Positions 1 to 6,990 of a stretch of 8,583 nt of DNA are shown here, one piece after another; positions within the stretch are counted from its first letter, which is position 1; every line of letters begins with the position of its first letter. Location: the IMG/VR virus record IMGVR_UViG_2541047170_000019; one strand, 5' to 3'. Origin of the DNA: a virus. Taxonomy: Duplodnaviria > Heunggongvirae > Uroviricota > Caudoviricetes. The notes under the pieces are model-generated. The model saw only the letters and a list, made by a program, of their open reading frames with translations. It had not been told where the DNA came from and did no database searches. The position numbers and the translations under genes were made by a program.

Positions 1-139
1 CCATTATAATTTTACTTTCATTAGCAATTGGTTAGCTCAATTATAGCCCCAAAAGGTAAATTATCATCAACACATAAGCAAAGGACTGACAGGTGCCGCC
101 CCCCCCACCAGCCGCCCATTTACCACAAATAAAAAGCCT

Positions 140-460
140 TCAGGACTGAATGCGTCTGTAACAACCGCACTGATAGTCTGCCAGACCCGCCATAACCAGC
201 TGGGTCAGTATTAACTGGCAGCGTTCGCGTGAAAGGTAAGTATTCTGCGCAATCTCCCCGACTGTCGCCGGTTCGGTAACGCTTAATTCATTAAACACCA
301 CTCTGGCGGTTTCTGTCATATCCTGCTGTTTTAGCATGTCTTTTTCCCTTTTCCGGTTAACGTGACATACCAATAACTCTTGTCGAAAAAGCCAGCAAGT
401 TGAAAGACCGGTATTAGCAACCACCAGCGCGTTTAACGCCCCGTGCCGTTTTTCAGTCAT
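140..460 (-). CDS. hypothetical small protein downstream of the Q-like gene; C-terminal part resembles a winged-helix DNA-binding fold; start uncertain
   Basis: 106-aa ORF in the six-frame track. The ATG at 460 directly abuts the T-tract of the upstream terminator and has no Shine-Dalgarno; an internal ATG at 337 (65-aa product) is preceded by AAGGGA-like purine run about 9 nt upstream. No motif recognised with certainty. Confidence 0.4.
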   Translation of the reverse strand: MTEKRHGALNALVVANTGLSTCWLFRQELLVCHVNRKREKDMLKQQDMTETARVVFNELSVTEPATVGEIAQNTYLSRERCQLILTQLVMAGLADYQCGCYRRIQS

Positions 461-482
461 AAAAAAACCCGCAAAAAGCGGG
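461..482 (-). terminator. intrinsic (rho-independent) terminator after the Q-like gene; possible tR'-like element
   Basis: Minus strand reads CCCGC-TTTTT-GCGGG followed by TTTTTTT (plus-strand 468-472 cccgc, 478-482 gcggg, 461-467 A7). The stem is only 5 bp but GC-rich and followed by a 7-U tract. It lies about 80 nt downstream of the Q-like stop at 562. Confidence 0.5.
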
Positions 483-561
483 CTCTTTCAAATGTCCATG
501 TCTGCTATTCGCCTCGCGGTACAGCTTTGCGAAGCTTACCGGAATTGAAGCAGTTTTTACG

Positions 562-1116
562 TCAAAAAGCAATAACTTTTTTCTCTATACCAAAAGCCAT
601 AACCATTGGTTTGTACAAAATAAATTCTGCCACCTTTAGCCAATGCTCAATGCGTCTTTCACAGGTTCTTAAACTCCATTCCGGATGTGCATCATTCAGC
701 AATTCAGCCATTTTGCGCTTAGTCATCCCCCGCCCCACATAACGCTGACTCAGAACATTGAGCAGCCCGGGATAACCTGCCAGTACTTCACCAATAACCC
801 TGTCGATTATTAACGCCTCTGAATCGGTACAATGTGCCAGCCAGCTTTTTTGCTTGCCGTTGATCATATCCCGCAAAAAAGCCTCAAGTTTAGGTTTGTC
901 CAGACCTGCTTTTTTCATCCTCCGGAGCGCCTCGTTAATTGCCGTTTTTGTCAGCTTTTTAGAGGTCAGCAACTGGTTGAACATATTTCCCGTCTTACCG
1001 CCGCCAATATACGACCAGCGCCCCCACATACGTAGTTTCCCCTGAATCCAGACACTTTCCAGCGTGGTGAGACGAAGGTGCTCTCCGCTTTTTCCTGTGT
1101 TCGTTGGGTAAATCAT
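562..1116 (-). CDS. putative late-gene antitermination protein Q-like (lambdoid)
   Basis: The track ORF 562..1236 overlaps the upstream gene; the internal ATG at 1116..1114 overlaps the upstream TGA stop (ATGA), giving a 184-aa coupled gene. Position immediately after a YbcO-like nin gene and before a terminator matches the Q slot. The motif LRMWGRW...LLTSK resembles the WG-W / LITSK region I recall from QuuD/phage-82-type Q proteins (from memory, unverified). Confidence 0.5.
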   Translation of the reverse strand: MIYPTNTGKSGEHLRLTTLESVWIQGKLRMWGRWSYIGGGKTGNMFNQLLTSKKLTKTAINEALRRMKKAGLDKPKLEAFLRDMINGKQKSWLAHCTDSEALIIDRVIGEVLAGYPGLLNVLSQRYVGRGMTKRKMAELLNDAHPEWSLRTCERRIEHWLKVAEFILYKPMVMAFGIEKKVIAF

Positions 1117-1403
1117 AAATAACCGTCCTTTCTCCAGATCTCTTGTGTGCGAAAAACACCTTCTGCATGCATCAGGCGCAATTCTTCTTTGGTGTAATCG
1201 CTGGTTTTTACTCTCCCGTCGATTAAATCGTGGCATGAGTTACAGGCAATCGCTGCCTGCATATCGTGTGGCTTTATCGCTGTTCCGCACGTTCCCGCCA
1301 GCCTGTAATGCGCCAGCACAGAGGTTTCGGGATTGTGATTGCAGTAGCCAGGGATTCTGATCTGGCATATCTGGCCTTTAGCCGCTTTACGTAAATTCAC
1401 CAT
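1113..1403 (-). CDS. YbcO-like protein (DUF1364 family, Cys-rich putative nuclease of lambdoid nin regions)
   Basis: 96 aa, the same length as E. coli DLP12 YbcO, with a closely similar pattern (LRKAA.G..CQ.RIPG.CN.NPETSVLAH.RL.G.CGT..KP.D...IAC..CHD).  Start ATG 1403..1401 overlaps the upstream TAA stop by 1 nt. Confidence 0.75.
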   Translation of the reverse strand: MVNLRKAAKGQICQIRIPGYCNHNPETSVLAHYRLAGTCGTAIKPHDMQAAIACNSCHDLIDGRVKTSDYTKEELRLMHAEGVFRTQEIWRKDGYL

Positions 1404-2002
1404 TACGCAAACTCCAGTAGTTGTGCGGCCACATTTTCAACTTCCTCCTGAGAGGAGAATTTACGGAACAGAATCCAGTTCCACAGCACATTCAGTACAG
1501 ATTTATAAACCTGCTGAAACTCGACTTCGTCCATATTCGCAAAAGCGATGGATTTTGCCCGACGCCCACGGCTACCGTCCGGATAAATATGCTCGGTGTA
1601 AAATCCGGCCTGAATGGTTACCCACTCGCGGAAAGCCTCAAACGACTTTAGCAACGCCGTATCCCGGGTTCTACGAGTCGCAACGGTGTTAAGGTATTGC
1701 TCTGCGGCATCACTCAGGGCTGGCGTGTGTTCCCGACCAACTGATTCGCACAGGTAATCAACGAAACCAGACAGCAGTTCTCGTTCGCGAGGCGTGATCG
1801 CCCCACCGACCGGAGTCCAGTAATCGAATCCCAGTTGCAGGAGTTTGAAAAAACGCTTGTGGAATGCGTAGTTACGCACACGCTTAAAATCTGCGTGTAT
1901 CCACTCACCTATTTTGATTTGATGCAGAAAATCGCAACTCTCCGGCGTCGCCGGGAGAAGTAAACCAGAAGAAGTTTGTTTGACCAGTTGTATATGCGCC
2001 AT
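1403..2002 (-). CDS. conserved lambdoid nin-region protein, probably DUF1367 family
   Basis: Clean 199-aa ORF at about 45-50% GC by eye. GAGAGA Shine-Dalgarno about 7 nt upstream of the ATG at 2002. Lies directly upstream of, and coupled to, the YbcO-like gene. Family assignment is from memory of typical nin-region gene content. Confidence 0.65.
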   Translation of the reverse strand: MAHIQLVKQTSSGLLLPATPESCDFLHQIKIGEWIHADFKRVRNYAFHKRFFKLLQLGFDYWTPVGGAITPRERELLSGFVDYLCESVGREHTPALSDAAEQYLNTVATRRTRDTALLKSFEAFREWVTIQAGFYTEHIYPDGSRGRRAKSIAFANMDEVEFQQVYKSVLNVLWNWILFRKFSSQEEVENVAAQLLEFA

Positions 2003-2421
2003 TTCTCAATCTCTCGATGGCGCAGTGCAGCAGATGCCAGTTGTTCAAGCTAGCACGCAAATTGTAAACCAGAATGCCAGGAAAAAACAAAACCCGCCGA
2101 AGCTGGTTGTGTGCGGTTGCGTTGAAGTCTCCTAGCCAAAGAGTAGCGGTGACCACTCCCCGCCGATAATCTTAGTTGTTTAATTTCGTAAGCTAACTAG
2201 GCTAAAAGCTCTCTGTTGTCTGCCTGTTGTACAATTAACAAAATGAACAACGAACTAGATATACCAACGCCAGAATGGTGCAACAAATCCCAAACAACAC
2301 AGCAATGCAACAATAACATATGTTATTTTCCTCTCACGGGATTCAGTCCTGAATTCTCATAAAGCTAATCTTTTTTTAAAAACATACTGTTAGATCACAT
2401 GCACTTTCTTTCTTAACATCG

Positions 2422-2449
2422 TTGACTTCGCATGCGAAGCGTTTAAAAT
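2422..2449 (+). promoter_or_regulatory. candidate sigma70-type promoter for the GHKL ATPase operon
   Basis: TTGACT (2422-2427), 16-bp spacer, TAAAAT (2444-2449); A/T-rich upstream region. Predicted start site near 2456, about 45 nt upstream of the ATG at 2502. The spacer contains the perfect palindrome TTCGCATGCGAA (2427-2438). Confidence 0.4.
2427..2438. promoter_or_regulatory. perfect 12-bp palindrome TTCGCATGCGAA inside the promoter spacer; candidate operator or methylation-sensitive site
   Basis: Self-complementary 12-mer read directly from the sequence, overlapping the -35 hexamer and spacer of the candidate promoter. Confidence 0.3.
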
Positions 2450-2501
2450 CAACAATTTGCACTTAAGGTATTTATTTTCCCAAACACATAGAGAGTAAAT
2501 T

Positions 2502-3893
2502 ATGACTGAGAACACGACTCCAACAGCAGACTTTAGTCCTAGTAAAAGATTTTTTGTAAGTATGCTAACTCGAGATATCGACTTAAACGATGCCATACTT
2601 GATCTGCTTGATAACTGCGTCGATGGGGCTTTACGTACAATAAAAGACACAAAAAAAACTTCAAAACCATATGAAGGATTTTATGCGAAACTTACGATTA
2701 ATAAAGATGTCTTTATTATAGAAGACAATTGCGGAGGTATCCCTAAAAGCTTCCGAGAATATGCTTTTAAAATGGGACGACCCCATCAAAAAGAAGAAGA
2801 AAATGAAGGCACCGTTGGCGTCTATGGTATTGGTATGAAAAGAGCCATTTTTAAAATGGGTAGAGATTGCTCAATACAATCGAATAATCCCGATGGCGCA
2901 TTCACTGTAGATATAACACCTGATTGGATCGATGGTGATGGTTGGAAAATACCGATGCACGAGAGTGACTATGATAACAAAAATCCAACAGGCACAACTA
3001 TAGAGATAAAAAAACTCCATTCTAATGTGGCACAAAAATTTAATGAGAGCACATATCTTACTGATCTCTTTTTACAGATAAAACACTCATTGTCATTTAT
3101 TATTCAAAAAGGATTTAAAATAGAATTAAATGGAGTTGTTGTTGAACATAATCCGATTAACATCATAACTGATCATTCTAAAATAGAACCATACATATAT
3201 AAAGCTAAAATAGACGATGTTGATATCGATTTAGTTGTTGGCTTCTATAAAAATTTAGAAGATGACAATGATGATGTTTTAGAAAAAAGGAGTTCTGATG
3301 ATGCTGGATGGACTGTCATTTGCAATGACCGCGTTGTTCTATATTGTGATAAGACACATCTCACAGGTTGGGGCTTTGCTAATGTACCAAGGTTTCATAC
3401 CCAATTTATAGCAATTTCTGGGGTTGTTCGCTTTACCAGTAAAAACCCAGAAAAATTACCAATAACAACAACGAAACGAGGTGTCGATCTTAGTTCTACA
3501 TTGTACAATGATGTACGAAATAAAATGATTGAAGGGATGATGCATTTTATTCGATTCACCAATCAGTGGAAAGGTGAGCATCTTGAAGAAGGGAAAAAAT
3601 TACTTAAGTCAGCTCAGTCACATGAAGCTCAATCTTTATTTGAAATTACCCCACAATCAACTCCAGAAGATAAAAAAAATAACTGGTCCAACCCTAATAG
3701 AAACAAAAATGAGTGGCGATATACACCTAAGCTGCCTACCCCAGTAAAAAAAAGCTCTACTGTACGAATAATCTTCACCAGAGAGAAAGAAGATGTTAAA
3801 ATTTTATCTAAATATTTCTTTGGACATGAAGATGCTAGCGCTTCTGATGTGGGGATGCAATGCTTTGATACGGTGATTGAAGAGGTGAAGTGA
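2502..3893 (+). CDS. GHKL-superfamily (Bergerat-fold) ATPase, MutL/MORC/Hsp90-like N-terminal domain with a C-terminal region of about 290 aa of unknown function
   Basis: 463-aa ORF; GAGAG Shine-Dalgarno 6 nt upstream of the ATG. All four Bergerat motifs appear in canonical order: N-box DLLDNCVDGA (aa 34-43, nt 2601-2630), G1 box IEDNCGGIP (aa 73-81), G2 box GTVGVYGIGMKRAIF (aa 103-117) and G3 box PTGTTIEI (aa 162-169). The N-box has the N...D spacing of MutL/Hsp90/GyrB/MORC-type ATPases rather than histidine kinases. Confidence 0.8.
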   Translation: MTENTTPTADFSPSKRFFVSMLTRDIDLNDAILDLLDNCVDGALRTIKDTKKTSKPYEGFYAKLTINKDVFIIEDNCGGIPKSFREYAFKMGRPHQKEEENEGTVGVYGIGMKRAIFKMGRDCSIQSNNPDGAFTVDITPDWIDGDGWKIPMHESDYDNKNPTGTTIEIKKLHSNVAQKFNESTYLTDLFLQIKHSLSFIIQKGFKIELNGVVVEHNPINIITDHSKIEPYIYKAKIDDVDIDLVVGFYKNLEDDNDDVLEKRSSDDAGWTVICNDRVVLYCDKTHLTGWGFANVPRFHTQFIAISGVVRFTSKNPEKLPITTTKRGVDLSSTLYNDVRNKMIEGMMHFIRFTNQWKGEHLEEGKKLLKSAQSHEAQSLFEITPQSTPEDKKNNWSNPNRNKNEWRYTPKLPTPVKKSSTVRIIFTREKEDVKILSKYFFGHEDASASDVGMQCFDTVIEEVK

Positions 3894-4882
3894 TGTCTGG
3901 ACAATACATTCCCTATCACTTAAGGCATAATAAGTCTATTGATAGAGAGATTTTTCTCGAAAGCCTAAACCTCTTAAGCAAAAGACTAAATATTCAAGAA
4001 TATACATATATAGGTTTTGGTGGTCCGATGCTTGAAGATTTTAGAATCATGCATAATCGTATCGCTCTTTCTGATATGATTTCTCTCGAAGAACAAGAGT
4101 CTACTCACATCAGACAAAAATATAATTTGCCTTATAATTGTATTGATTGTAAGCTAATATCAGCTCATGACTTTATTCTTGATTATAGTTTTTCTAAACC
4201 ATCAATAACATGGTTAGACTATGCCTCCCCGAAAAAAATACAAACGGATCTAGATGATATACACTTACTAAGTACTAAAGTAAGCTCTTTTGATATTTTG
4301 AAGGTCACCTTCCCCATAAATCCTAGTTCTTATTACCAACGTAGAGTTGGAGAAAGTTTAGATATTTTTAAAGAAGCTTTTATTAATTCATTAAAATCAT
4401 TGCTTGGGAAAAAGTATCTTGATTTTAATCTTCAGATATCAAATGCAGATCTTTCAGATCGTAAGATTAAAGCTCTTTTAATACGAATTATTACAAACGC
4501 TTTTAGATCAGCAATAGAACGTGGTCTTTCAGGACGTAAGGATAAGATTCAGTATTACCCATTATCCTTAAATCAATATAATGATGGCAGTCATACCATG
4601 TTGACAATATCAGGTTTTTTCTCCTCAGAACAAGAATATATAGAGTTATCTAAGGCATGCGACCTTTCTAACTGGCAATTTTATTCAACAAATTGGGAAG
4701 ACGTGCAAGAAATAGCAATACCAACACTAACAATTAAAGAAAAGATAAATTTAGATAGTAAACTGCCTGATAAAGAAGCATATCAGGCAGCCGCTGAAGA
4801 GTTCTCTTTAAACGAAAATGAACGGGATAACTATTATAAATACTATAGGTTATACCCTAACTTCCAAAGAATTATGGTTTAA
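3893..4882 (+). CDS. hypothetical protein, translationally coupled partner of the GHKL ATPase; function unknown
   Basis: ATG 3893-3895 overlaps the ATPase TGA stop (3891-3893) as TGATG, with AGAGGTGA 5-8 nt upstream (the track's start at 3890 is a GTG). 330-aa (from ATG 3893; 331 codons from the track GTG 3890) AT-rich ORF. No canonical nuclease, helicase or Toprim motif recognised. The N-terminal YIGFGGP...RIALSD...NLPY is faintly reminiscent of a Rossmann-type SAM-binding motif followed by a degenerate (D/N)PPY (speculative). Confidence 0.75.
   Translation: MSGQYIPYHLRHNKSIDREIFLESLNLLSKRLNIQEYTYIGFGGPMLEDFRIMHNRIALSDMISLEEQESTHIRQKYNLPYNCIDCKLISAHDFILDYSFSKPSITWLDYASPKKIQTDLDDIHLLSTKVSSFDILKVTFPINPSSYYQRRVGESLDIFKEAFINSLKSLLGKKYLDFNLQISNADLSDRKIKALLIRIITNAFRSAIERGLSGRKDKIQYYPLSLNQYNDGSHTMLTISGFFSSEQEYIELSKACDLSNWQFYSTNWEDVQEIAIPTLTIKEKINLDSKLPDKEAYQAAAEEFSLNENERDNYYKYYRLYPNFQRIMV
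4745..4790 (-). terminator. candidate intrinsic terminator for the methyltransferase gene, embedded in the 3' coding region of the convergent partner gene
   Basis: Perfect 10-bp inverted repeat CTGCCTGATA (4763-4772) / TATCAGGCAG (4781-4790) with an 8-nt loop. On the minus strand it is followed by the U-rich run TTTACTATCTAAATTTAT. It lies about 60 nt downstream of the methyltransferase stop at 4850. The plus-strand side is not T-rich. Confidence 0.4.
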
Positions 4883-6001
4883 ATATTCGGGCTGTACTCT
4901 TTTATTTAATAAATTGTACAGCCCCTTTAATATATATTCAGCAACTATTGGTGACACGCTATTTCCTATTTGTCTGAAACTATGCCATTTAGTTACATGA
5001 AAGCGAAACCAATCAGGGAAGCCTTGTAATCTAGCAGCTTCTCTTGGTGTAATCACTCTTGGATGATAAGGGTGGATCGGCCTGACGGCTTGAAAGCTTC
5101 CTTTATCTCTAGCGGTTCCCGCCCTTAAAGTCGGGCAAAAACCATTTGGATCTAATCTTGTAGATCTTGAAATTTTATCAGTTTCCCCAAAAGATAAGGA
5201 AGCATAACGCTCTTGGACGATTTTGCTATGTAATGTTCCGGTACATCCAGATATGATATTATTTTTTAACTTAGCGATCGATTCTGTATCACCAACATTC
5301 CGAGGGATCTGCCCCCATAATTTTTCATAAAATCCCCCTTTTCGATCTTTTTTAATTGTTCGCCAACTCTCAGAGTCTGATTGCCAATTGGCATCGATAA
5401 TATCTGGTAATCCATACAAAGCATCTTTTACAGTAACCGGATCAATCATTTTAGGCATAAATACTTCATCTGAAATATCAAGCTTCAATGATTTTTTTAC
5501 ACCGATAAAAAAATATCTAGTTCGAATAGTTGGAGCACCATAATCAGATGCTTTTACCTTGATGGGATCAAGAATATCATAATCACCGCTAACCAAATTA
5601 AATGCTTTATTTCTAATGCCAGAATATTTCTCTTGCATAATACCTGGAACATTTTCTGCCAAAAAGAATAATGGCTGTAATTCTGATACTAAACGGTAGA
5701 AATGCATGTAAAGCTGATTCCTGCTATCATCAGGATTCCCCTTGCCTATTGAACTAAATCCTTGGCACGGAGGACCGCCAATAATACCATCTATGGGCAT
5801 ATCGTTTTTAAAAAAACCCTTAATTATTTCTGCATTTAGTAAAGAAACATCTTCTTGGACGTGCAAACTTCTTGGAAAATTAATTGCGTGAGTATTAATA
5901 GCATGTTGATCAATTTCAACTGCCATTTTAACATCAAATCCAGCACGTGCAGCACCAAGACTTAGACCTCCAACGCCAGAAAACAAATCTATTACATTCA
6001 T
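4850..6001 (-). CDS. DNA (cytosine-5)-methyltransferase
   Basis: 383 aa with canonical C5-methyltransferase motifs in order: motif I DLFSGVGGLSLG (aa 5-16), motif IV GGPPCQGFS with catalytic Cys79, motif VI FLAENVPG, motif VIII RTRYFFIG, motif X IGNSVSPIVAEYI. Target-recognition region between VIII and X is about 190 aa. Specificity cannot be read from the sequence. Confidence 0.9.
   Translation of the reverse strand: MNVIDLFSGVGGLSLGAARAGFDVKMAVEIDQHAINTHAINFPRSLHVQEDVSLLNAEIIKGFFKNDMPIDGIIGGPPCQGFSSIGKGNPDDSRNQLYMHFYRLVSELQPLFFLAENVPGIMQEKYSGIRNKAFNLVSGDYDILDPIKVKASDYGAPTIRTRYFFIGVKKSLKLDISDEVFMPKMIDPVTVKDALYGLPDIIDANWQSDSESWRTIKKDRKGGFYEKLWGQIPRNVGDTESIAKLKNNIISGCTGTLHSKIVQERYASLSFGETDKISRSTRLDPNGFCPTLRAGTARDKGSFQAVRPIHPYHPRVITPREAARLQGFPDWFRFHVTKWHSFRQIGNSVSPIVAEYILKGLYNLLNKRVQPEYLNHNSLEVRV
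4889..4924 (+). terminator. stem-loop downstream of the partner gene stop; candidate terminator for the ATPase operon, lying inside the methyltransferase C-terminal codons
   Basis: 9-bp inverted repeat GGGCTGTAC (4889-4897) / GTACAGCCC (4916-4924) with an 18-nt A/T-rich loop, followed on the plus strand by CTTTAATATATATTC. It starts 7 nt after the partner gene stop (4880-4882). The large loop and interrupted T-tract make it a weak terminator call. Confidence 0.3.
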
Positions 6002-6033
6002 ATAGTTGCAACGTCTCTTATTAGTTTCTATGT

Positions 6034-6063
6034 ATTATAACACAACTGTTCTTGATGTTTTAA
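6034..6063 (-). promoter_or_regulatory. candidate extended -10 promoter for the methyltransferase gene
   Basis: Minus strand reads TGTTATAAT (perfect TATAAT at 6039..6034 with TGn extension) with a weak -35 TTAAAA at 6063..6058 (18-bp spacer). Predicted start site near 6027, about 25 nt upstream of the ATG at 6001. Confidence 0.4.
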
Positions 6064-6173
6064 CCCCATAAGATAACCTCATAAAGGCTATCCCTTGAAA
6101 ATACCGGATCGCATAAATTTAATCTTTCAAAACTACTTGTCTATTAATCGAGCAATTTAAGGTTGTTTTAGTC

Positions 6174-6189
6174 ATGTCGATACCGACAT
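6174..6189. repeat. 16-bp palindromic element ATGTCG-ATAC-CGACAT in the noncoding region upstream of the methyltransferase
   Basis: Perfect 6-bp inverted arms with a 4-bp spacer read directly from the sequence; a second inverted repeat CCCATTT(n12)AAATGGG lies at 6201-6226. Confidence 0.3.
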
Positions 6190-6263
6190 AGTTAACTAAA
6201 CCCATTTCATCGTCCAACAAATGGGGGTAATACACTTTGATTTATAGTCGGGTGGGTTTTTCT

Positions 6264-6299
6264 CTATCTGCCTTTGGTGTTCATGCCCAAGGCAGATAG
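6264..6299. repeat. perfect 11-bp inverted repeat at the right edge of the AT-rich island
   Basis: CTATCTGCCTT (6264-6274) and AAGGCAGATAG (6289-6299) with a 14-nt spacer. Not flanked by a T-tract on the correct side in either orientation, so not a canonical terminator. It sits at the composition transition. Confidence 0.35.
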
Positions 6300-6352
6300 C
6301 CTCAAGCACCCGCAGCAATTCTACTTAACTATCCTTTTCCCGCAAATCGTTT

Positions 6353-6436
6353 TTATCCCCAGCGGCAAATCGAATACACAACCAGCGCCACCGCCATCGC
6401 AATTCCTACCGTTGTGAATGCTTCAGGCCAGGTCAT
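6353..6436 (-). CDS. small hydrophobic peptide (27 aa, single predicted transmembrane helix), translationally coupled to the DUF551 gene
   Basis: Absent from the ORF track because of its size. ATG 6436..6434 overlaps the upstream TGA (6435..6433) as ATGA, with AGGAGGT (plus 6443-6449) 6 nt upstream. Translation: MTWPEAFTTVGIAMAVALVVYSICRWG, stop TAA 6355..6353. Confidence 0.45.
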   Translation of the reverse strand: MTWPEAFTTVGIAMAVALVVYSICRWG

Positions 6437-6990
6437 TGATTCACCTCCTGCGGCGGTTCTGGTAGCGACATCCAGTGGGTTGCTTGCCTAAGATCATTAC
6501 CCGGACTAACTGCTATACCTCCGCGCCGGAACGTGCCTCCGAGATAGCGTGCGGAATATATTAATGGCCCAGCCTCGCTATCGATATTCATCGAAATAAG
6601 CACGTTCTGGCTCTTTTCAGGCATTCGCTCAGTACAGCTTATCCAGCCATCCAGAGTTATCGGAGATCTGGTTGACGTTTCCGAGATTTCCCGAAAATTG
6701 TTGGTTGACGAATTCTTATTTTCCCGAAAGTTTCCGGCCTGAAGCATGGCGACGCGGCAGGCGTTCCAGCCATCAGCATATGTTTTAGTTACACCGTCGA
6801 GATGGCAGGTAAGCAAATCCATTTCATCAGGCACTACCATTGCTATCGGCTCTGCTTCCAGTGATGCCAGCGCGATACGAAACACATTAGCCAGCAGGCT
6901 GTCTGAAGACTTGTTATCGTGCGCCGAGTCGCTCAGGAAGCCTGTGATGTATGATTTAATCTCCGCGCGTTCTCTGGTAATAGTGCTCAT
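6433..6990 (-). CDS. DUF551-domain protein (lambdoid prophage early/nin region)
   Basis: 185-aa ORF. The C-terminal segment DGWISCTERMPE...VLISMN...THWMSLPEPP matches the W...LP...hWMPLPepP signature I recall for DUF551. AAGGA Shine-Dalgarno about 9 nt upstream of the ATG at 6990. Confidence 0.7.
   Translation of the reverse strand: MSTITRERAEIKSYITGFLSDSAHDNKSSDSLLANVFRIALASLEAEPIAMVVPDEMDLLTCHLDGVTKTYADGWNACRVAMLQAGNFRENKNSSTNNFREISETSTRSPITLDGWISCTERMPEKSQNVLISMNIDSEAGPLIYSARYLGGTFRRGGIAVSPGNDLRQATHWMSLPEPPQEVNQ

Follow-up and report, generated by a model that had tools for sequence, protein, structure and literature searches.

The 8,583-nucleotide stretch of DNA analysed here, referred to below as the window, carries on its minus strand a 27-codon open reading frame (ORF) at positions 6353..6436 (MTWPEAFTTVGIAMAVALVVYSICRWG), with its ATG at 6436-6434 and its TAA stop codon at 6355-6353, which is almost certainly protein-coding. 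The encoded peptide very probably forms a membrane helix, and codon-level comparison of homologues shows that purifying selection acts, with moderate strength, on its reading frame, length and amino-acid sequence. The reading favoured here, which is rather probable as a whole, is that phages carry the ORF as a genuine accessory gene, whose product, a 27-residue peptide, spans the inner membrane once and acts by the mechanism set out below.

The original prediction described a short coupled ORF with a near-consensus Shine-Dalgarno (SD) sequence and an ATGA overlap, and these features are confirmed at 6436..6353. The minus strand reads ...CCGCCGC AGGAGGT GAATCA ATG ACC TGG ... GGA TAA. The SD sequence AGGAGGT (6443..6449, minus strand), read directly in the sequence, lies within the final codons (..QEV..) of the upstream gene and is separated from the ATG by a spacer of 6 nt (GAATCA). 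The ATGA at 6433..6436 (minus strand) contains both the start codon of the peptide gene and the TGA stop codon (6435-6433) of the upstream gene, and is the presumed site of termination-reinitiation coupling. The frame has no start codon farther upstream, which leaves the ATG at 6436 as the sole possible start. The upstream gene (6433..6990, minus strand) encodes a 185-aa protein with a C-terminal DUF551 domain (PF04448, E 5.3e-20), whose orthologue is called DUF551 domain-containing protein in RefSeq. This gene is the coupling partner of the peptide gene in this window only: the coupling to a DUF551 gene that had been proposed is true here but is no defining link, as the SD and the ORF follow unrelated genes elsewhere.

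Other ways of reading these nucleotides were tried and rejected. The peptide is not a C-terminal extension or frameshift product of the DUF551 protein, because it lies in a different frame and a slippery heptamer was not seen, nor is it a part of that protein, since the same peptide also follows non-DUF551 genes. A programmed frameshift fusion was rejected because no slippery site was seen and because, upstream of the ORF, its frame stays open for only 5-19 codons, a stretch that is very short in the context of the 933W type. An antisense gene was rejected because the sole antisense frame with low pN/pS shares third codon positions with the ORF, an expected artefact, and has no start codon, while a plus-strand 47-aa ORF beginning with TTG was rejected as a gene because its frame has a pN/pS of ~1.

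Homologues were gathered by two degenerate-pattern scans of viral contigs, by tblastn against phage and plasmid records, and by blastn against complete E. coli genomes. One scan of genome contigs, with 16 specified bases, gave 2 true matches out of 120, the remainder being almost all due to chance, and later served only as a null set. The homologues comprise 59 distinct 84-nt DNA versions and 36 distinct peptides, and are hosted by prophages, Stx phages, phage-plasmids and one virulent Vequintavirinae phage. Exactly 27 codons are present in 56 of the 59 distinct sequences. The three exceptions are L042, which has an in-frame 6-nt deletion that is the sole internal indel of the set, and L083 and L106, which have lost the stop codon at a mosaic junction. 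Where the stop codon itself has changed, a stop is retained (TAA to TGA).

On codons 8-27, which were left free by the first search pattern, pN/pS is 0.36 in the frame of the ORF; the other frames give 0.93-1.25, apart from the antisense frame whose third positions coincide with those of the ORF. Minimum-spanning-tree counts on three sets of codons not fixed by the search patterns gave omega values of 0.35 (p 5e-9), 0.31 (p 1e-5) and 0.47 (p 4.5e-5), with an overall range of 0.28-0.47 (p 5e-9 to 4.5e-5), and the same counts gave 0.96 and 1.78 in the shifted same-strand frames. Pairwise ratios are below 0.7 in all 21 comparisons among seven divergent members. The peptides of the window and of locus L280 are identical, while their genes differ by 9 synonymous and 0 non-synonymous changes and by a TAA-to-TGA change of stop codon, and the window differs from the virulent phage Av-05 by 12 synonymous and 5 non-synonymous changes. 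With omega at ~0.3-0.5, the constraint is no more than moderate, and many exchanges between hydrophobic residues are tolerated in the middle of the helix.

Outside the set of 59 sequences, L108 is a truncated recombinant and L269 and L283 are frameshifted by 1 nt, so the peptide gene decays in some prophages (L283, L269), and the existence of these few frameshifted or truncated copies indicates that it is dispensable for the host. In L283 (E. coli MSB1_4E, 601-683) the 1-nt deletion falls in codon 2 of the small ORF, and an annotated hokD lies just downstream. The original prediction had proposed conservation and synonymous substitution across homologous prophages as one of its checks, and frameshifts or stops in this frame as one possible refutation; it withstood both, with 27 codons kept in 56/59 sequences, omega ~0.3 and frameshifts that are rare (L269, L283). 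The peptide is absent from the supplements of a Ribo-seq study of small genes in Sakai and of a survey of the Enterobacteriaceae microproteome; multi-copy prophage genes and ORFs that overlap annotated genes are of the kind that such screens may miss.

By blastn, 1634 of 5426 complete E. coli genomes (~30%) carry the peptide gene, with a total of 3110 copies, up to 7 copies per genome and 163 copies borne on plasmids. It is carried by 93 phage records, including 933W, VT2-Sakai, VT1-Sakai, BP-4795, Min27, ArgO145 and Shigella phage POCJ13, as well as the virulent phage Av-05 and further large Escherichia phages, whose records measure 77-134 kb. It is also found in 180 PLSDB plasmids, which are mostly non-mobilizable; those listed come from E. 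coli, Salmonella and Klebsiella and are mostly of ~90-105 kb, and the phage-plasmids of these hosts measure roughly 95 kb. The gene lies behind different early accessory genes (Ea22/DUF551-like, EaA-like and others), both in lambdoid and Stx phages, where it occupies the exo-xis and nin regions, and in phage-plasmids and the virulent Vequintavirinae phage.

The ORF had been described as unannotated, which holds for the RefSeq/PGAP and phage records inspected, where it is not annotated, but not for nr, in which a few GenBank entries name the exact peptide 'hypothetical protein' or 'bacteriophage protein' (e.g. AOM45384.1). Pfam, NCBIfam, PHROG and PADLOC gave no significant match for the peptide. 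The best profile matches, all far below cut-offs, were phrog_4612 (E 0.019), TIGR02115 KdpF (E 0.024) and PF19029 (DUF883_C, E 0.042), and the sub-threshold Pfam matches were DUF883_C and PTR2 only. The match to phrog_4612 was set aside as probably a generic transmembrane match, because the ORF has no N-terminally extended version. A search of the searchable literature and supplements did not find the peptide sequence, and a review that models all exo-xis proteins mentions no membrane peptide and does not list the ORF. In a 90%-identity cluster (P0001-P0015) the peptide is grouped under a representative 121-aa DUF551 protein of Shigella; a fusion with DUF551 was rejected here, as the two have no common sequence. 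A 31-aa fragment at a contig edge (GGESMTWPEAF...), named 'DUF551 domain-containing protein, partial', explains the DUF551 label of the cluster, and the grouping of the 27-aa peptide with DUF551 proteins looks like an artefact of clustering and naming.

The start signals travel with the ORF. Among the copies with enough flanking sequence, both the ATGA overlap and an SD-like core 5-11 nt upstream of the ATG are kept in 141 of 141, and in 128 of them the overlapping TGA terminates an upstream ORF that is 50 aa or longer. Codon 2 encodes T, S or N across the copies and always has A as its first base, which preserves the stop codon of the upstream gene. The upstream flanks fall into 12 sequence clusters and, by their C-terminal sequences, at least three unrelated gene types: DUF551/Ea22-like genes, an 81-aa type ending in ..GLISVEDxLR, and EaA/ea22-like genes. 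Otherwise unrelated upstream genes end in the same five residues, ..QEVNQ (window 6437-6451), followed by the stop, and those of another class end in ..EDxLR. The common ..QEVNQ tail is explained by the fact that those codons hold the SD of the small ORF; since unrelated upstream genes have these SD-bearing codons in common, the mobile unit is the SD together with the ORF. Judged from these shared endings, wherever the micro-ORF module joins a gene, it replaces the C-terminus which that gene had before.

The downstream flanks are more varied, with 26 sequence clusters and more than 10 unrelated contexts. A hok promoter follows the ORF in 61 of 116 copies, and other contexts include several G+C-rich hairpins followed by runs of T, a toxin-antitoxin pair on the opposite strand, and a gene that starts 2-4 nt past the stop codon. 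In the loci inspected, the ORF usually closes the series of cistrons, and a terminator-like hairpin, a hok/sok cassette or some other inserted element comes next. The ends of the mosaic segment are those of the gene, at the SD/ATG on one side and at the stop codon of the ORF on the other, and many megablast matches start precisely at the ATG. In Av-05, PhiR12_1 and pPK5086-95kb, the ORF exactly fills an unannotated gap between two annotated genes, and in CPS-53 of K-12, yfdS (DUF551) is directly followed by yfdT, with no small ORF between them. The ORF is found without hok and hok leaders are found without the ORF, and therefore the ORF does not belong to the hok system.

The window is a lambdoid prophage early-right region of the nin type, read on the minus strand, in the order DUF1627 protein, HTH protein, DUF4014, DUF551, small ORF, low-GC block and three further ORFs, which, from reading by eye only, we take to be NinB-like, DUF1364-like and Q-like. 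A hok promoter-like site (6318..6345, minus strand), with a -35 element TTGCGG at 6345-6340, a 16-nt spacer and a -10 element TAGAAT at 6323-6318, starts 8 nt past the stop codon of the peptide gene and is a neighbour, not a part, of that gene. Its role as a promoter is inferred from its place immediately before the first position of the Rfam hok/sok model; loci with an intact hok carry an identical site, and a generic promoter scan did not detect it. It is followed by a truncated hok mRNA 5' leader of ~74 nt (6238..6311, minus strand), which matches RF01794 from the first position of the model with an E of 4e-9 and 50.2 bits, short of the gathering score of 59. O157 prophages and Stx phages have this sequence too, and there it runs into an intact hok ~210 nt after the small ORF. 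The homology of the window to the intact hok loci L001 and L004 stops near 6237, at the start of a low-GC island (~2250-6237, GC ~0.35) where the GC content falls from ~0.50 to ~0.35; thus the island replaced most of the hok/sok cassette. The placement of the ORF at the right edge of this island was inexact, as the hok promoter-like site (6345-6318) and the leader (6311 to ~6238) intervene, and the true edge, at ~6237, is ~115 nt from the ORF.

The island carries a C5 DNA methyltransferase gene (6001..4850, minus strand), which is the sole PADLOC match there (type II MTase), a Methyltransf_35 'O-methyltransferase' gene (3890-4882, plus strand) and a HATPase_c_3 GHKL ATPase gene (2502-3893, plus strand), and these three genes may form a module for modification or defence that is so far uncharacterised. 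The same three genes, for the methyltransferase, the O-methyltransferase and the ATP-binding protein, also follow the small ORF in EDL933 (L282) and in strain 25-06685 (L002), both of which carry a different upstream gene from the window; the ATP-binding gene is cut off at the end of L282. At the other side of the window, the Q-like gene (1236..562) is closely followed by a weak isrK-like Rfam match at positions 462-535 (minus strand; 19.8 bits, E 0.81, far below the gathering score), at the end of which there is a strong terminator hairpin (GCCCGCTTTTTGCGGGCTTTTTT-like). This segment may hold a short pR'-type leader transcript and its terminator.

The peptide had been described as a hydrophobic single helix, and the prediction is borne out by the divergent members, all of which are hydrophobic over residues 6-24. 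This single hydrophobic stretch has a 19-residue Kyte-Doolittle mean of 2.11 in the window peptide and of 1.85-2.29 in seven divergent members. The Hessa biological-scale values of the window peptide sum to approximately +0.2 kcal/mol, which is compatible with a membrane helix. The window peptide has just two charged residues, E5 near its N-terminus and R25 near its C-terminus, and most variants have no charged residue between them. By the positive-inside rule this placement suggests that the topology is probably N-out/C-in. The divergent members, such as MNWPEAFTAVGVAIAVAFILYSLFRWG, MSWPDAIVTLGMVFAAAFVVYSICRWG and MSWPEAFTTVGIVMAAALGLYSICRWW, follow the pattern M-[TSN]-W-[PS]-[ED]-..-G11-..-A15-x-A17-..-Y21-S22-x-[CF]-R-W-G, in which W3, P4, A6, G11, A15, A17, Y21, S22 and W26 are invariant or nearly so. 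A test for alpha-helical periodicity of conservation found none (p = 0.60), and an alternating pattern of small residues (G11, A13, A15, A17) is only suggestive and not significant (p = 0.08), so that one conserved binding face is not supported.

Hydrophobic ORFs of 27-34 aa that start with MTWPEAF were observed in unrelated non-enterobacterial viral contigs with GC of 0.56-0.66 (L018/L092, L051, L062 and L103), and those of L051, L062 and L103 have an ATGA overlap with the next gene. Short and hydrophobic ORFs account for 4 of 9 viral matches outside the family (L051 being just below the cut-off) versus 2 of 118 chance matches in bacterial genomes. No common theme was found among the genes neighbouring these ORFs. 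They may represent a wider peptide family or an artefact of composition. It is distinctly unlikely that the window peptide is the founding member of a widespread, uncharacterised family of phage microproteins with an N-terminal W-P-E/D head and a transmembrane helix, reaching beyond enterobacterial phages, and with a specific membrane target through which it would influence how the phage develops early on or, in Stx phages, the hok/toxin cargo next to it.

In the mechanism proposed for the accessory phage gene, the peptide gene would be transcribed only with the early operon of the phage, after derepression or infection; a consensus scan found no promoter-like site directly upstream of the ORF. 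The peptide would be translated by termination-reinitiation from the upstream gene and would insert into the inner membrane with its short W-P-E head outside and its R-W-G tail in the cytoplasm, as expected from the positive-inside rule. There its helix could pack against another copy of the peptide or against a membrane protein of the host, with contacts made by the conserved small residues G11, A15 and A17 together with the invariant Y21-S22 and W26; that it packs with a partner early in infection is a tentative step, less probable than not. The peptide would thus be a non-essential host-takeover or membrane-modulating factor of early lytic growth.

The original prediction suggested a membrane-active toxin, a lysis modulator or a superinfection-exclusion factor, which are at most candidate roles, and the gene lies in early accessory regions, away from any lysis cassette. 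The same peptide could instead damage the membrane and kill the host, as a kil-like or type I toxin-like product that oligomerises in the inner membrane and depolarises or permeabilises it when the early operon is derepressed and is silent in the repressed lysogen. Small membrane toxins such as Ibs, ShoB and DinQ resemble it in size and hydrophobicity, its SD is strong, the ORF often adjoins toxin-antitoxin or hok cassettes, and the small residues 11, 13, 15 and 17, on two faces of the helix, could permit packing of several helices; however, the alternating small-residue pattern is the one that falls short of significance, and charged or polar residues that could line a pore are absent. An antisense RNA and a dedicated promoter were looked for and not found, and a genome may hold as many as seven copies of the gene, which also occurs in a virulent phage and in phage-plasmids; a toxin is therefore considered unlikely. 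Small prophage membrane proteins can also act in exclusion or defence, and the peptide could be made in the lysogen to block DNA entry or to trigger abortive infection from the membrane. Its gene adjoins cargo of the defence type (hok/sok, toxin-antitoxin pairs and the methyltransferase island), but it has no PADLOC match and lies within repressor-controlled early operons. An exclusion factor expressed in the lysogen is very unlikely because the consensus scan found no promoter-like site directly upstream, of a kind that such a factor would probably require, and because the gene is also present in the virulent phage Av-05.

Two further explanations dispense with the peptide. It could be that translation itself matters and the ORF is a terminal 'spacer' cistron, which prevents Rho-dependent polarity or tunes read-through into a terminator or hok. 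The ORF is always coupled to the upstream gene and is usually the last cistron ahead of a hairpin terminator or a hok promoter, as such a spacer would be, but in more than 10 downstream contexts that are unrelated to each other its amino-acid sequence and exact length are conserved (omega ~0.3; invariant W3, Y21, S22 and W26), even where the next gene begins within 2-4 nt, which makes this explanation highly improbable. Strongly disfavoured, and hardly credible, is that the ORF is accidental and the conserved DNA is a cis element, for instance an upstream part of hok/sok or a recombination hotspot. Although the hok promoter follows more than half of the copies examined (61/116) and curated annotation pipelines make no call, the synonymous excess is specific to one frame, the ORF and the hok leaders each occur without the other, the mosaic boundaries match the SD/ATG and the stop codon, the only internal indel of the analysed set is in frame and changes of the stop codon keep a stop (TAA to TGA).

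As an accessory phage gene for a membrane peptide, the ORF is a widespread gene (~30% of complete E. coli genomes) that standard annotation skips in medically important Stx phages (933W, VT2-Sakai, VT1-Sakai and BP-4795). With this peptide, the exo-xis and nin accessory regions gain a predicted membrane component; these regions are poorly understood and have an influence on the choice between lysis and lysogeny and on the induction of Stx prophages. The module is also a clean example of a mobile unit of ribosome-binding site and micro-ORF that imposes its own last five codons on the preceding gene, and the peptide gene is easy to test, being only 84 bp long and under repressor control.

Among known systems, the peptide is a new small-protein family that resembles the small single-pass inner-membrane proteins of bacteria, as a functional kind and not as a homology family. 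It has no more than 50 codons with a ribosome-binding site, is under selection at the protein level and has one hydrophobic stretch of membrane-spanning length, as predicted by Kyte-Doolittle hydropathy. KdpF, AcrZ, MgtS, CydX and YohP (up to 50 aa) are of the same size class, with a single hydrophobic helix and flanking aromatic or positive anchors, and small inner-membrane proteins have likewise been missed by annotation pipelines. Where their function is known, these proteins act by binding larger membrane proteins. They have no sequence relationship to the peptide, which, unlike them, is phage-borne, belongs to an early operon, is coupled to the preceding gene and occurs in multiple copies per genome.

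The peptide is not a member of the Hok family, a type I toxin, a holin or a leader peptide, because one defining feature fails for each of them. Type I toxins (Hok/Gef, Ibs, ShoB, DinQ and TisB) are likewise short and hydrophobic, and the peptide gene often adjoins hok/sok, but it lacks an antisense RNA partner, a promoter of its own and a long structured 5' UTR, and its start codon overlaps an upstream stop. A Pfam scan gave no match to Hok/Gef (~50 aa, Pfam Hok_Gef), and the sole Rfam match near the ORF is the separate hok/sok leader downstream. A holin or antiholin was rejected because all inspected loci are early accessory regions, either exo-xis with xis/int alongside or nin flanked by the replication genes and ninB/Q, and not lysis cassettes under late control with endolysin and spanin genes. 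A regulatory leader peptide acting by attenuation, which would have a constant terminator/antiterminator partner downstream and a largely variable sequence, was rejected given the 26 downstream sequence clusters and the conserved sequence and length of the peptide. The accessory genes of the exo-xis and nin regions (ea22, ea8.5, orf60a/61/63 and the nin genes) are like the peptide gene in their neighbourhood and in their mosaic and dispensable character, and the peptide gene directly follows genes of the Ea22/DUF551 type in these regions. Within this accessory set, its product would be the sole predicted membrane peptide.
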